A DNA stretch of 64,000 bases from Armatimonadota bacterium (GTDB lineage Bacteria; Armatimonadota; Fimbriimonadia; Fimbriimonadales; GBS-DC): assembly GCA_037444405.1 (NCBI GenBank), contig JBBIML010000018.1:1-64000 (forward strand), read 5' to 3'. Each line of letters opens with the position of its first letter. Position 1 is the stretch's first letter. Shown piece by piece: positions 27,001-33,000 of this stretch. The position numbers were made by a program.

Positions 27001-30000
27001 TGCCTGACGGCGCCAATCCGGGCGGAGCGGTCGATAGCTGGTCTGGCACTACCAGCGCAGGAGGCGCCTACACGATTCATCTGGAGGGCGCCTGCTTTGT
27101 GCCTGAACCCGCGAGCATGCTGGCGCTGGGTGCGGGTCTGGCAGGCTTGCTGGGTCTGCGTCGGCGCAAGAAGTGAGGGAGTTTCTGCCCTCACCCCCAT
27201 GCCCCCTCTCCCGCTGCGGCGGGAGAGGGGGTTCTTATTCTGGGCTGAGCGGATTTAGCCCCCTCACCCGTACCCTCTTCCTCTGAAGGGGGAGAGGGGT
27301 TTCCTGCTGCTCCCCTCTCCCACAGCGTGGGAGAGGGGCTGGGGGTGAGGGGTGTCGCGCGGTACAATCGAGTTATGCCCGCTAACGGCTGGGTGCTGGA
27401 TCTGGGGCTGATAGGCTATCGGCAGGCGTATGAGCTGCAGACGCGCCTGCACGCGGCGCGCGTCGCAGGTGAGATACCCGACACCCTGCTGCTGCTGGAG
27501 CATCCGCCCGTGATCACGCTGGGCAAAGGCGCCCGCGCCGAGCATCTGCTCTTCAGCCCGGAGTTCTACGCCCAGCGCGGGGTCGAAGTCTGCCCGACCG
27601 ACCGTGGGGGCGATGTTACCTGCCATATGCCCGGTCAGCTCGTGGGCTACCCCATCTTTGACCTGCGGGCGCACGGACGCGATCTGCATCTTTTCCTGCG
27701 CCAGCTGGAGGAGGTATTGATACGCACCCTGCACGAGTATGGCGTCGAGGCGTTGCGCTCGCCCGGCTATACGGGCGTGTGGGTGGGCAACGAGAAGATT
27801 GCCGCGATTGGCATCAAGGTTGCCCGCTGGGTCAGCATGCACGGCTTCGCGCTGAATGTGAACAACGATCTGGGGCTGTTCGGGCTGATAGTGCCGTGCG
27901 GGATTGCCGATAGGGGCGTGACATCACTGAGCCAGCTCAAACAGCATCCTGTGCCGATGGAGGAGGTCAAAGCGCGAGTGGTCCGGCAGTTTGAGGCGGT
28001 GTTTGGGCTGGCGCTGATGCCTCCAGAAACGCCTTCAGCACGGGTCTCAATTGCGGTTTGACCCGCTCCACCAGGAACGAGTCGTGCCCCCACGGGCTGT
28101 CGATAATCACATGCTGGGCGCGCTTGCCGAGCGATTGGAGCGTGCGCACCGCCTCTTCCTGACCCTGCGGTGGGAAGAGCCAGTCGGAGGTGAAGCTGAT
28201 GAAGAGCATCTCTGCCTGCACGCGGCTGAGCGCGCGCTCAAGGTCGCCCGCGCCATAGGTCGCCGCGAGGTCGTAGGTGTCCATCGCACGGGTGATGTAG
28301 AGGTAGCAGTAGGGGTCGAACCGTTGCAGGAAGGTGCTGGCTTTATATTCCAGATAGCTCTCCATCTGGAAGGTGATGCCCCAGAAGTCGGGTTCGGGAT
28401 GGCGTTCGCGTCCGAACTTGTGCCAGAGGGCGTCGCTGGAGAGGTAGGAGAGGTGCGCCAGCATGCGGGCGAGCGCCAGCCCACGCCGCGCGCCTGCCTC
28501 CCCGCCTGTCATCAGCCCCATCAGGATGGTCTGACGCTGGATGTGATTGAGCGCAATCACCATCGGGCTGGAGCGGGCAGGCGCGGCAATTACAATCGCC
28601 TTCTGCACGCGCTCCGGATAGCGCACCGCCCACTCGAATGCCCGCATGCCGCCTGTGGAGCCGCCCACCACCGCGTAAACACGCTCGATGCCCAGCCGCT
28701 CCAGCACCACCCGCTCCAGCTCCACCCAGTCGCCGACCGTTATCGGCGGGAAGGTCAAGCCGTACGGTTCGCCCGTAACGGGATTGGTGGAGAGCGGCGA
28801 GGTAGTGCCGTACGGGCTGGCAAGCACATTGATGCAGATGACAAAGAAGCGCTCAGTGTCCAGCGCTTTGCCTGGTCCGACATAGAGGTCCCACCAGCCG
28901 GGCTTGCGGTCGTCAGGATGGTGCCTGCCGGCGGCGTGTGCGCCGCCCGAGAGCGCGTGGCAGAGCAGGATCACATTCTCGCGTTCGGGCGCGAGCGTGC
29001 CGTAGGTCTCGTAGGCGACCTCAACGGGCGCCAGGCGTGCGCCGCAGGCAAGCGTCAGCCCTTCCTCGAGGCGCAGATGCTGAGTCTGCACCAGCCCGAC
29101 GCTGCGCTCGGGCTGTTCGGGCAGCACGGCTGCCCTGCTCTCTGGCTCGTCTAACGGTTTCATCGGTTGCACTCACCACCCGTGCATGCCCGGTCATCGC
29201 CCGCCATGGCGCGGTCAGTCAAGTGGGCGGGCGGTGTGGGGCGCCGCGGCGCACCAGCATGACCGCCACGCGCTCCGGCTTGACCGCCTCGCGCAGCACT
29301 TCCAGCGCGCGTTCCGCCTCCACGCTCTCCGAGCAGAAGAACAGATCGACCGCCGCGTAGCGATGCTCGGGCCAGGTGTGAATCGTGTAGTGCGATTCTT
29401 CGATGATGACCACGCCTGACACGCCGTAGGGTTCGAACTCGTGGAAGAAATGGCTGACGATATTGGCTCTGGAGGCGTGGGCGGCGCGAATAAGCGTGTG
29501 GGCGACCGCGTCGACCCGCTCCAGCGTGCCTGGCTCACAGCCGTACAGCTCCACCAGCAGGTGCGTGCCCAGCGAGCGGCAATCGTCCTGCCGCAGGGTG
29601 GTGGGCGCGAGCTCGATGTCAAATTCATGGGAGCGGATGGGCACGACGGCATGGGTGGACACGGCGCGTGTCAGTCGCATCAGACGCTCGCGCACCCAGC
29701 GCCCAAGCGACGCGACGGGCGCCAGCCAGCCCGTTGCCGACCGCGCAGGTCGGCTCCCCAGCAAACCAACCCGAATAGTCATCGTTAGCCTCCTGTAGCC
29801 GTCGGACACTGATCGCGCCGACAGCCGTTCAACCGTTTATTTTTCAGCCATCAGGCTGAACCGAGTGCAACACGGCACAAGCCGTGCTGACCCCGGAGGC
29901 GATTTGGGTTTATTTGCGCGGTCGGTTCGGCATGGTGGGTCAACCGCCCTGCAGAGGGCGTTGCCCCGCAGACGCTCAAAAGGGTGAAGCGCCTATGGCG

Positions 30001-33000
30001 AGAATCCAAGACGGCAAACGAATCGGGAACGCATTCGCCCACCGCGTTGGACCGCGACATAGCGCCCGCTTCGCCTCCCCCTTTGGGTTCGTCTGCAACC
30101 CGTCGCACGGGCTGCACGCGGGGGCTATTATACCCCATTCGACAAAAAGTCAAGGGCATGCCGCGAATCTACGGCTCCGACTGATAGGGGATCAGCAGCG
30201 AGACGCGGCGATTGGAGTAGTGATAGGGGTCTTTCGGGTTGCGCAGGCGGGTGGCGGCGTAACCCCGCACCTCCGCCACCTGCCCCTGCCATAAACCGCT
30301 CGATTCCATGATGCGCCGCGCCGCGTTCGCCCGATCGGTCGACAGCTCCCAGTTGGAGTAGATTTGCTCATACCGATAGCGGCGAGCGTCGGTGTGTCCC
30401 TCAATCACCACCCGATTGTCCAGCTGACCCACCTCGCGAGCGATGAGCATCAGCAGTTTACGAGCCGCTGGCGTCACCTCCGCGCTGGCGGTCTTGAAAA
30501 ACACCGGCTCGGGTCCCTCAATCAGCTCGATGCGCAGCCCTTCCTTGACGAATTCAATCTTCACATGCTCTTTCAGGCGGGCGAGGTCGGGGATGGTCGC
30601 CAGCGCGGCTTCAAGATACTGCTTGAACGCCTCCAATCGCTCCCGCTCACGCCTTGTCCCTTTCGAGATGCCCGGCGGCTTGAAACCCTCGTTGCCTGAA
30701 GTGTGGGGCAGCTCCATCGTGTTTTTGCCGCCTGGCGGCAGGGCGTCGTTCACCGTGAAGACCGCTTTAGAGCGCATCTGCGCCTCAAAGAAGCCGGTCG
30801 GGTCACGAAAGTAGCCTGCAATCGCTTTGCGAATCTCCTGATCCAGCCCCACAATCCACATTACGAGGAAAAACGCCATCATGGCGGTCACGAAGTCGGC
30901 GTAGGCGACCTTCCATGCGCCGCCGTGATGCCCATGCCCGCCCTTTTTGCGTTTAACGACCCGAATTTCGCCTTCTGCCTGTGCCATCGCGCCTCCTTAT
31001 GCTGCCTGCGCTGCCGCTGCGCTGCTGGTGTTGCGCACCGCCTCCTCCATCTCCGGGAAGCTCGGTCGCAGGGTGGGTTCGATGCTGCGGCGGGCGAACT
31101 CGATGCATGTCAGCGGCGCGTCGCCCCGCGCGAACGCAATCAGCGCCTGCCGAATGCACTGCAGGTACTGCTCCTCGGGATGCACATTGTTTTCCACAGC
31201 GGACGCCAGCGGCTGGAAGATTCCATAAGCCGAAAGCACGCCGAGGAAGGTTCCCACCAGCGCGGAGGCGACCTTATGCCCGATTTCTTCGGGTGGACCA
31301 TCGATTGCGCCCATCGTGATGACCACGCCCAGCACCGCCGCGACAATCCCGAAGCCGGGCATCGCGTCGCCCACCCGGCTTAACACATGCGCGGGCTTCA
31401 TCGCCTCTTCGTGGTGGCGCTCGATGTCCATCTCGGTCATCTCCGCCAGTTCGAACGCGCCCACCGCGCCCGTCAGCACCACCTTCATCGTGTCGCACAG
31501 GAACGCCAGCGCGTGATGGTTGTTCAGAAGCCCCGGAAACTGCTGGAACAGCGTGCTTTCGTGCGGACGCTCCACATGCTGCTCCAGCGCGAGCAATCCT
31601 TCCTTGCGGGCAAGCGTGAACAGCGCGAACAGCGCACGCAACAGCTCTAAAAAACTCTCCTTCTTGTAGGGGCTGCCCTTGAGTGTGCCCAGCACCGCCT
31701 TGATGACCTGACTGATAATGGCGGGTGGGTTGCCCACCAGCATGGAGCCAATCGCAGCGCCCCCGATAATGATGAACTCCGAAATCTGGATGAGCGCGGC
31801 GACCTTGCCTCCGTGCATCAGGAACCCGCCCAGTATCGCACCGAACAGCACCAGCGTGCCAACAATAACAAACATCCAGCCCCAAACGCCTCCTGTGCAG
31901 CAGTTATTCCACTTCAGGCGAACAAAAAGCAGGTAAGTTTCGGGAGTTGGAAAGGACAGGAAAACAGGGATGCCCGTAAAATTACTTGATGATCGAGATG
32001 GGCATCCTTGCGTGGAGTGTGGCAGCGGTCGGTTTTGCGGGTGGGTTCGTGGCGGCGCTGATGGCGCGGCGGCAGGCGGGCGTGCCCGCCTTCGCGTTGC
32101 CCACACTGTGGCTGTTGAGCGTGCTGGCGTTCGGCTTGACCCTGCCGACGGAACCGCCCCCGACCTTTCAGCCCGGTGGAATGCTGGGCTGGGGCATTCT
32201 GCTGACCTCAGGCTTATGGCTGATCAGCGCGTTTGTCGCGACGTGCAAGGGCTGGGACTGGCTGGGCGCCGCTTTGCCCCTGATTGCGCCCGTGCTGGCG
32301 TTGACCTTCGCGCGGGGCTATTCCTTGCCCGCGCTGTGGGGGATAAGCATCGCGACGGTGCTGGCGTGGTGCCTTCTGCGCGGCGTCTGGGGCGTGGTCG
32401 GGAGCGTCGCGCTGAGCGTGCTATCGCTCACGCTGATGACAGGGCTGGCTTTGTATGCCGGTGCGCCACGCTGGTACGGGGTGTGCGTTGCTGGTGGGGC
32501 GGTGGTCGCGCTGTGGCTGATTGCGTGGCGGTCGCGTCAGGCACCGCTCGGCTGGTGGTGGGCGCATGTGCTGACCTTCGGCGCGTTCACGCTGACGGCG
32601 CTCGGCTATCACCTGTCGGGTGTGGAGGGGCGGTGGCTCTATCTGGTGCTGCTGGCGCTGATTGCCGTGACGCTCGCGCGCGGGCTGGGCGGCGTGGGCG
32701 AGTGGAGCCGCTATGCCCTGCTGGTGTGGGTCGCGCTGTTCGCAGGCGTGTTCGCTCTTCAGCGCGGCTTCGGGCTGGCGTCCTGTGCGCTGATGGTCAG
32801 CCTCTACGCGATGGTGATGGCGCACGAGCGCAGGGTTCAGACGGAGCCGTCGGAGCGCGAGCTGTATCGTGTCGGCGCGGTGCTGCTCACCTTCCTGAGC
32901 GCGTTTCGGCTGTTCGTGCTAAGTTATCCGTTGCGCCCGCCGCGCGCCGATTTATACACACATTACGCGCTGGTCGGCTTTTTGCTGGCGCTGGTGGGGC

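Follow-up and report, generated by a model that had tools for sequence, protein, structure and literature searches.

The speD-metX unit and its leader

The window, the whole 64,000-nt stretch of Armatimonadota DNA (family GBS-DC) that we analysed, contains on its minus strand the gene speD (29219..29782), which encodes an S-adenosylmethionine (SAM) decarboxylase of 187 aa (TIGR03330, 127.8 bits against a cut-off of 75.65) and is the sole copy in the genome. The second gene of the unit, metX, encodes homoserine O-acetyltransferase (27967..29172, minus strand, start uncertain). It lies 3′ of speD in 20 of the 21 genomes where this was testable and in 31/31 testable metagenome loci; the scrambled gene order reported in the initial annotation therefore applies upstream of the leader and not downstream. 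In all family members, SpeD carries an Arg/Trp-rich, basic N-terminal extension of ~68 aa, which is predicted to be mostly disordered, with one low-confidence helix at residues 21-38; used as a query, it retrieved four close relatives and nothing further. At all 22 complete loci the extension shares the speD reading frame, which rules out a frameshift or an independent leader peptide at the start of the gene. Because the family possesses a partner enzyme (spermidine synthase in 20/24 family genomes, and an agmatinase encoded in this genome), SpeD probably acts as a genuine SAM decarboxylase, following the logic of PMC10407285. No match over the cut-off was obtained for a branched-polyamine synthase.

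Upstream of speD is a real, cis-acting folded leader that had not been catalogued before; all of its parts lie on the minus strand. Transcription probably starts near 30120, downstream of a sigma-A-type promoter (30127..30153) recognized by consensus match, with a -35 box TTGACT (30148-30153) and a -10 box TATAAT (30127-30132). Both boxes of the promoter previously claimed 5′ of the RNA are thus present; a consensus scan had overlooked it because the spacer is 15 nt. The -10 hexamer occurs in 23/24 loci, the remaining locus being cut by a contig end. A 5′ hairpin, P0 (30095..30115), has 2 of 9 pairs changed on both sides and is lost in genera g2 and g6. The conserved core follows at 29894..30080, with a length of 151-200 nt among relatives. 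The covariance-model match has exactly the bounds originally assigned to the RNA, 29894-30080; these hold for the core, while the full extent is wider, about 29736-30121, and reaches into speD.

The core opens with the 5′ strand of the closing helix P1 (30071..30078), a Shine-Dalgarno (SD) look-alike, GGAGGCGA, that is invariant in 45/45 distinct sequences. The adjoining invariant 5′ block (30047..30066) includes a conserved AUG (30058-30060) and has two possible partners: it may fold into an early hairpin (P2, P3), or its CGCGGUC (30050-30056) may pair with a distal segment, the switching strand. The 3′ strands of P3 (30004-30009) and P2 (29989-29997) occupy 29989..30009, and that of P2 overlaps the 5′ strand of an alternative helix, P5a. 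In the region 29937..29977, the P5a 3′ strand (29971-29977) is accompanied by an inserted hairpin (29937-29969) that is optional; at this place the hairpins of G000 (this genome) and G002 are unlike those of L105, L117, L123 and L128. The inserted hairpin is single copy in the genome and was rejected as a genomic repeat. The switching strand, CCGACCGCGC (29916..29925), can form a closed core by pairing with the 5′ block, or a long-range helix by pairing with speD codons 12-14. Last in the core, the P1 3′ strand (29895..29902) is also an anti-SD sequence, GCCUCC. Spacer hairpins P6 (29861-29895), P7 (29843-29860) and P8 (29798-29825), together spanning 29798..29895, bring the speD SD (29788..29795) near the core, and none of the three is followed by a U-run. 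No hairpin with a U-run was found between core and start codon in 24 leaders, or on the minus strand at this locus. Within speD, the frozen codons 3-14 (29736..29771) comprise GGUUGG (29766-29771) and a hairpin (29736-29754) whose halves have alternative partners in hairpin H1, in H2 or in the long-range helix.

Distribution and folding of the core

The RNA had been described as family-wide and family-restricted, and larger samples agree: the covariance model detected it in 24 of the 28 other genomes of the family and in 0/121 other genomes of the order, and BLAST in 23/24 family genomes, covering all six genera, and in 0/16 genomes of other families. The four family genomes without the RNA also lack a speD match. 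A phylum sample (n=149) gave a single weak 25-bit covariance-model match (E 0.023), which lies within a long ORF. The model matched none of 29 speD loci of other families, and nhmmer detected no homology to the leaders of the sister family. Pattern searches returned some matches from other phyla, 9/31 in the genome collection (one with just 133 nt of downstream sequence) and 3/10 in an earlier scan, all without the 3′ block and without speD. Within the family, the leader invariably precedes a single metabolic gene set, in the same orientation. All 24 first loci lead into an in-frame speD start, in keeping with the original observation that the RNA always precedes speD; the whole SpeD protein is present in 22 of them, and two are cut. 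Among 42 metagenome loci, 32 had sufficient downstream DNA, and speD followed in 32/32. Because all leader sequences come from one family, their invariance partly reflects shared descent.

No Rfam family matched at its gathering score, as had been reported, whereas the reported bound of E<=1 did not hold, since there is one chance-level match at E 0.51; four chance-level matches appear at the locus up to E of 10. A literature search returned no description of this RNA, although the motif tables of large discovery papers might still hold it.

The closing helix and both alternative inner pairings were all recovered. The folding z-score of -1.6 that had been held against the element gave way to stronger values, -3.0 for the core and -5.75 for the leader plus first codons. 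Covariation is indeed scarce, as the initial annotation conceded: both core folds carry compensatory changes, in 3/24 and 2/29 pairs and in few lineages, such as U-A to C-G in P2 of g2 and g6 and C-G to U-A in P2 of g6. This scarcity arises because most of the invariant blocks have two partners, and two partners can explain most invariant bases; roughly five invariant 3′-side adenines are unpaired in both core folds. By itself the core folds as a closed unit (P1 probability 0.98-1.0), and, given a closed fold that is fully nested, a pseudoknot (CGCGG/CCGCG) atop the early hairpin is not needed. In a truncation series modelled at 55 °C on 18 sequences, the early hairpin formed in 16/18, P1 reached at least 0.97 in 18/18 once its 3′ strand was present, and the long-range helix reached at least 0.86 in 14/18 at +50.

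Frozen codons and a proposed two-state switch

How might such a leader act on speD? The start of the gene offers three indications. First, of the nine four-fold sites within the first 15 columns of the alignment, eight reach 90% invariance or more, compared with 3/47 in the rest of speD (Fisher p 1e-6), and the frozen sites use rare codons (GTT 12%, CGA 10% and CCT 12% of synonyms). Second, these synonymously frozen codons 3-14 complement the 3′ strand of the core, and RNAalifold, unprompted, paired the switching strand with them; in this genome the perfect complement extends over 11 nt, a length reached by 11/2037 of its long ORFs. Third, random synonymous recoding of codons 2-15 raised P1 in 24/26 sequences in the folding model. 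The long-range helix is predicted in 21/26 sequences, and in genus g2, where the usual partner on the coding side is gone, another helix of 11 pairs joins leader and coding sequence. Against a switch, the long-range helix is unfavoured in 5/26 (g4, g2, L110, L159), and the long-range, anti-SD and H1 helices have 0/19 pairs changed on both sides. The anti-SD GCCUCC pairs with the speD SD at a probability of at least 0.8 in just 8/26 sequences. When the closed core was forced in the folding model, SD opening rose by at least 0.1 in only 15/26 sequences and fell in seven; in this genome it moved merely from 0.15 to 0.20.

As read from the sequence, the promoter, the continuous leader, the frozen codons and the complementarity are established. 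The earlier proposal of a new speD leader gains support from the lack of a U-run terminator, the exceptionless co-occurrence of RNA and speD, and the complementarity of the core to frozen codons. We propose, with a probability of roughly 0.65, that the leader and speD codons 3-14 form a cis-acting two-state switch that governs how translation of speD, within the speD-metX unit, is initiated. According to the folding predictions, the 5′ part would first form a long hairpin, P2-P3-P4; as the 3′ strand emerges, the RNA would rearrange into a closed core of P1, GGG/CCC, CGCGGUC/GACCGCG and P5a. This would be the ON state, with both the switching strand and the anti-SD locked away. After codons 12-14 have been made, they could pair with the switching strand, and P1 would open. 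In the predicted OFF state, the lower-energy fold, the start region would be caged, with hairpin H1 forming at +10 and, in some lineages, GCCUCC masking the SD. A putative signal would decide which fold wins.

For that signal, we rate polyamine end-product feedback, with spermidine favouring OFF, as the likeliest, a tentative preference somewhat short of even odds; a substrate (SAM, putrescine or agmatine) that holds the core closed, and thereby ON, seems doubtful. Direct binding of the RNA by a small molecule of any kind is conceivable at somewhat longer odds than polyamine feedback. It is to the same degree conceivable that the element is a new riboswitch class unrelated to SAM-I, in which the closed core would bind a polyamine, a diamine precursor or a SAM-cycle metabolite and the first 14 codons would provide the platform. 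If true, an independent fold ahead of speD-metX would represent a second polyamine-sensing solution with a short list of candidate ligands. The working parts of the switch would freeze synonymous codons, so motif searches of intergenic regions only would halve the element. Its narrow range, one family, limits its general importance.

Translational SAM riboswitches (SAM-II, SAM-III, SAM-V) act by hiding the SD, and they too stand ahead of metX and SAM-cycle genes. In contrast, the speD leader is about twice as long, carries its anti-SD within the closing helix and has a second partner in the coding region. SAM-II (RF00521) has no match at the locus and none over the cut-off in the genome; the SAM-I aptamer (RF00162) is likewise unmatched here, its best score in the genome being 18.4 bits on another contig. 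Eukaryotic SAM decarboxylase is controlled by a uORF (MAGDIS). Another eukaryotic parallel is the 5′ UTR of Schizosaccharomyces pombe spe2, a leader through which, according to PMC6961545, polyamines control SAM decarboxylase translation. Both are eukaryotic systems, and the speD leader lacks a conserved leader peptide. The spermidine riboswitch, a SAM-I variant, is the one validated polyamine-sensing class described in PMC10853860, whose authors find earlier polyamine-riboswitch claims unconvincing. It too is a structured leader ahead of polyamine genes including speD, with polyamine feedback proposed; unlike the present RNA, it retains the four stems of the SAM-I fold, is found in Gram-positive genera and acts by transcription termination. 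The speD leader has neither a SAM-I match nor a terminator, and its platform is made of coding sequence.

Alternative explanations

A version of the two-state switch that differs in its sensor would have a ribosome, loaded at the upstream SD-AUG, cover the 5′ block and free the switching strand, turning speD OFF. The invariant GGAGG in the P1 5′ strand lies 13 nt ahead of the AUG, a spacing (at least 13 nt) that is rare in this genome (37/537 genes); the AUG is present in 37/38 sequences examined, and its A is kept in g2 and g6 despite a partner change to a mismatch. In Escherichia coli, polyamines stimulate initiation at distant SD sequences, according to PMC4951125. However, the upstream frame varies from 7 to 125 codons, with its length, stop and frame relative to speD unconserved; its first bases all have pairing roles as well, and the AUG would be buried in both predicted folds. 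We consider a ribosome sensor unlikely. The same variability (7 to 125 codons, stops unaligned, no conserved leader peptide) led us to reject a leader-peptide attenuator.

Ribosomal-protein operons provide known examples of operators that take in coding sequence. Here, SpeD, with its basic extension, or another protein might bind one fold and repress translation, and the presence of the Arg/Trp-rich extension in every family member would fit such a role. The predicted disorder of the extension, relieved by the single helix noted above, speaks against this; moreover, constraint at the RNA level explains its conserved peptide, and no regulator gene accompanies the locus. A protein-bound operator is rather improbable.

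Less probable again is a core that is released from the speD transcript by processing and acts in trans, the codons being frozen for another reason, such as a DNA operator palindrome. The core does fold closed by itself, and the coding hairpin forms a 7-5-7 inverted repeat in this genome; nevertheless, a terminator is absent, the rare changes in the repeat (L110, L120, L126, L131) retain G-U pairs while breaking DNA symmetry, and the genome holds no near-identical second copy, only five 3-mismatch matches.

We give marginally less credence to a two-state RNA thermoswitch that would tune polyamine synthesis to temperature in these hot-spring bacteria. The cspA, lambda cIII and rpoH switches, as presented in PMC4166951, resemble the speD element in that mutually exclusive folds of UTR and coding sequence set initiation; the likeness that we draw is one of mechanism. 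Those switches respond to temperature, whereas the folding models show no consistent flip here: three of 18 sequences (G014, G008, G004) turn to the closed core by 70 °C, and in 13/18, including this genome, the long-range helix stays at 0.6 or above even at 80 °C.

That the element is a second, paralogous 6S RNA of the family is very improbable: it shares with 6S RNA (RF00013) a size of about 190 nt, its own sigma-A-type promoter and a closed fold with a closing stem and internal loops, but RF00013 does not match at the speD locus, the RNA is fused to an mRNA, and its closing stem of only 8 pairs encloses a branched interior with optional hairpins rather than a long unbranched rod with a central bubble. 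Identities as tmRNA, SRP or RNase P were also rejected: ARAGORN places a tmRNA candidate elsewhere in the genome, and motifs alone point to SRP and RNase P candidates that likewise lie elsewhere. Nor does the family's 6S RNA seem to be missing, as had been suggested. The genome's only RF00013 match is full-length, scores 30 bits, below the cut-off of 46.4, and lies on contig C11 (G000:C11:105640-105821), where a long closing stem and a separate -10 box accompany it. This 6S-like RNA, which is conserved in 22/24 family genomes, is, as a by-product of our analysis, the probable 6S RNA of the family.

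A family-restricted leader of speD

The element at 29894-30080 (minus strand) is a real, family-restricted and uncatalogued cis-regulatory RNA of speD-metX, the working parts of which reach into the coding region. It is flanked by motB and speD, and a promoter pair (-35 at 30148-30153 and -10 at 30127-30132, minus strand, 15-nt spacer) lies upstream. With BLAST, the region was found in 23 of 24 family genomes versus 0 of 16 others, and a covariance model trained on 27 cores matched 24 of 28 family genomes and, elsewhere in the order, 0 of 121. The four family genomes without the RNA are 68-85% complete and also gave no speD match; in genome G299, speD adjoins the RNA. 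In a sample of the phylum (n=149), the single match, of 25 bits, lay within a long ORF.

Pattern scans of metagenomes yielded 42 loci, of which 10, with less than 240 nt downstream, were left out of the speD count; speD was present in all 32 others. The genome-collection scan gave 31 matches. Twenty-two came from Armatimonadota or a record named bacterium HR15 (21 with speD, one cut), and the other nine, from other phyla, were without the 3′ block. Where the sequence runs far enough, metX comes after speD in 20 of 21 genomes (the exception is in genus g6), as it does in 31 of 31 testable metagenome loci, and the genes upstream of the leader differ between genomes. Nothing in Rfam reached a gathering score at the element locus, where only chance-level matches up to E 10 were seen, and no description of the element was found in the searched literature, mainly the article text of open-access papers. 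One locus, L025 (G021:C17:254-445), carries several changes in otherwise invariant bases, AUG included, and represents either a decaying copy or assembly errors; the four-fold-site count, the folding of the core alone, the truncation series and the 26-sequence set were all done without it.

Predicted alternative pairings in the core and the speD start

Most invariant blocks are predicted to have two pairing partners. The 5′ block pairs within the early hairpin (P2, P3, P4) or with the switching strand on the 3′ side (29916-29925), which has speD codons 12-14 as its other partner, and GGCGC pairs in P2 or in the alternative inner helix P5a. The 3′ strand of the closing helix P1 (the anti-SD) pairs with the SD-like P1 5′ strand or with the real speD SD, and CCGACC in speD pairs upstream (hairpin H1, from +10) or downstream (H2). 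GGG pairs with CCC when the core is closed, and this CCC might also pair with the frozen GGG codon.

The initial annotation had worried about scarce covariation, and it is indeed scarce: 3 of 24 pairs covary in the closed fold (reached in 5 of 500 shuffles) and 2 of 29 in the early fold (15 of 500), because covariation takes three changes wherever a base has two partners. What covariation exists backs both core folds, thinly. Among 45 distinct sequences in anchored registers, P2 changes from U-A to C-G in genera g2 and g6 and from C-G to U-A in g6; the helices of the OFF state are 98.5% paired, with zero double changes. Optional hairpins occur in some lineages, all inserted at one junction.

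Both the SD and the ATG (29782) of speD are conserved. In 22 of 22 complete loci among the 24, the frame first encodes an extension of about 68 aa and then continues into the enzyme. An alignment of 23 sequences (the error-rich G021 excluded) shows invariance of 90% or more at 8 of 9 four-fold sites within its first 15 columns, versus 3 of 47 such sites further on (Fisher p 1e-6). The codon preceding Val always ends in G, though the residue is R, K, Q or W, and rare codons make up the frozen stretch. RNAalifold pairs GACCGCGC of the core with these frozen codons, and GGUUGG with CCGACC. The leader and the first 50 coding bases share a perfect complement, 11 nt long in the genome studied here and 8-11 nt across 24 loci; of this genome's 2037 long ORFs, 11 have one of at least 11 nt, 51 of at least 10 and 183 of at least 9. 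No hairpin-plus-U-run was found between the core and the speD start. The new speD leader originally proposed is thus borne out by speD at every testable metagenome locus and by the complementarity of the core to frozen speD codons.

The N-terminal extension of SpeD (29579-29782, minus strand; loci L064-L087) was found across the order where speD was found. It is basic and Trp-rich in the element's family and begins with a hydrophobic stretch in the sister family f3; its structure prediction is of low confidence. A spermidine synthase gene adjoins speD in three genomes of other families (G030:C11, G028:C1, G039:C1), and in the element's family speD precedes metX.

Predicted switching and its signal

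In the folding model, the core alone forms P1 with a probability of about 0.98-1.0, with two inner folds within about 0-6 kcal/mol among the sequences listed. When 18 chosen sequences (14 genomes and 4 others) were folded as a truncation series at 55 °C, the early hairpin formed first in 16 and P1 in all 18 once its 3′ strand was present; at the ATG stage P1 was still at least 0.89 in 17 (0.37 in G000, the genome studied here), and by +50 the long-range helix between the switching strand and codons 12-14 had replaced the P1 state in 14. In a set of 26 sequences (17 of 24 genome loci, G021 and six near-duplicates having been removed, together with 9 of 20 new cores), this helix reached at least 0.6 in 21 and anti-SD pairing at least 0.8 in 8, and synonymous recoding of the speD codons increased P1 in 24.

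We consider it reasonably probable (about 0.65) that the element and the speD codons form a two-state translational switch. The nascent closed core would leave the speD start free (ON), and the leader-coding fold, lower in energy, would cage it (OFF), a direction suggested by the positions of the anti-SD and H1. Two results count against a switch: with the closed core forced, the SD opened by at least 0.1 in 15 of 26 sequences, dropped in 7 and was almost unchanged in G000; and in genus g4 the long-range helix is not favoured. Genus g2 has lost the usual coding partner, and a neighbouring leader stretch forms another 11-pair helix with codons 4-7, apparently one rewiring event. Temperature as trigger produced no consistent flip in the folding model. 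In its predicted mode of action, the element can be likened to a translational riboswitch or to two-state mRNA switches of the cspA or cIII type (PMC4166951).

A new ligand-binding riboswitch class is a more tentative proposal. The sensor may be a pocket within the RNA, where about five invariant 3′ adenines are unpaired in both core folds. It may instead be a ribosome on the widely spaced SD-AUG pair that the core contains, which is present in 37 of 38 sequences and has a precedent in PMC4951125, although the reading frame from the core AUG is not conserved; or it may be a protein. Tests run on the element placed it neither with the SAM-I/spermidine riboswitches nor with SAM-II.

Because G000 has one speD, one spermidine synthase and an agmatinase, its SpeD is, judged by gene content, probably a SAM decarboxylase; some SpeD homologues, one from Armatimonadota, are not (PMC10407285). 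Polyamine repression or diamine activation would make sense for both speD and metX, and SAM alone would pull the two in opposite directions unless control were limited to speD. Since known controls of SAM decarboxylase work via polyamines (PMC10853860, PMC6961545), polyamine feedback is favoured as the signal of the proposed switch.

Other structured RNAs

The initial annotation had alternatively suggested the missing 6S RNA. RF00013 matches G000:C11:105640-105821 (plus strand; L001:1501-1682) over its whole length with 30 bits (E 3e-4; cut-off 46.4). This RNA, which 22 of the 24 family genomes share, has its own -10 box just upstream and a predicted fold with a long closing stem; it is probably the family's 6S RNA. 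With this separate full-length match located on contig C11, the identification of the speD leader as 6S RNA was dropped as extremely improbable. tmRNA lies on C13, and candidates on C9 and C11 of the same genome are, by their motifs, presumably SRP RNA and RNase P RNA, respectively.

In family f3 (L065-L087), speD has a long leader of a separate kind, some 300 nt upstream of the gene. It combines a 5′ hairpin that is conserved, a long-range closing helix (GGAGA strand with UUUCUC strand) and a 3′ hairpin before the SD; its interior is variable and absent in L072, and speD there has an apparent TTG start. No sequence homology to the element was detected, and the layout parallels that of the element's proposed switch. 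In the window, the sole Rfam match at gathering score is a tRNA (40301-40374, plus strand). A 237-aa ORF (26463-27176, plus strand) ends in a VPEP motif, a hydrophobic stretch and a basic tail, and we take it to resemble a PEP-CTERM protein.
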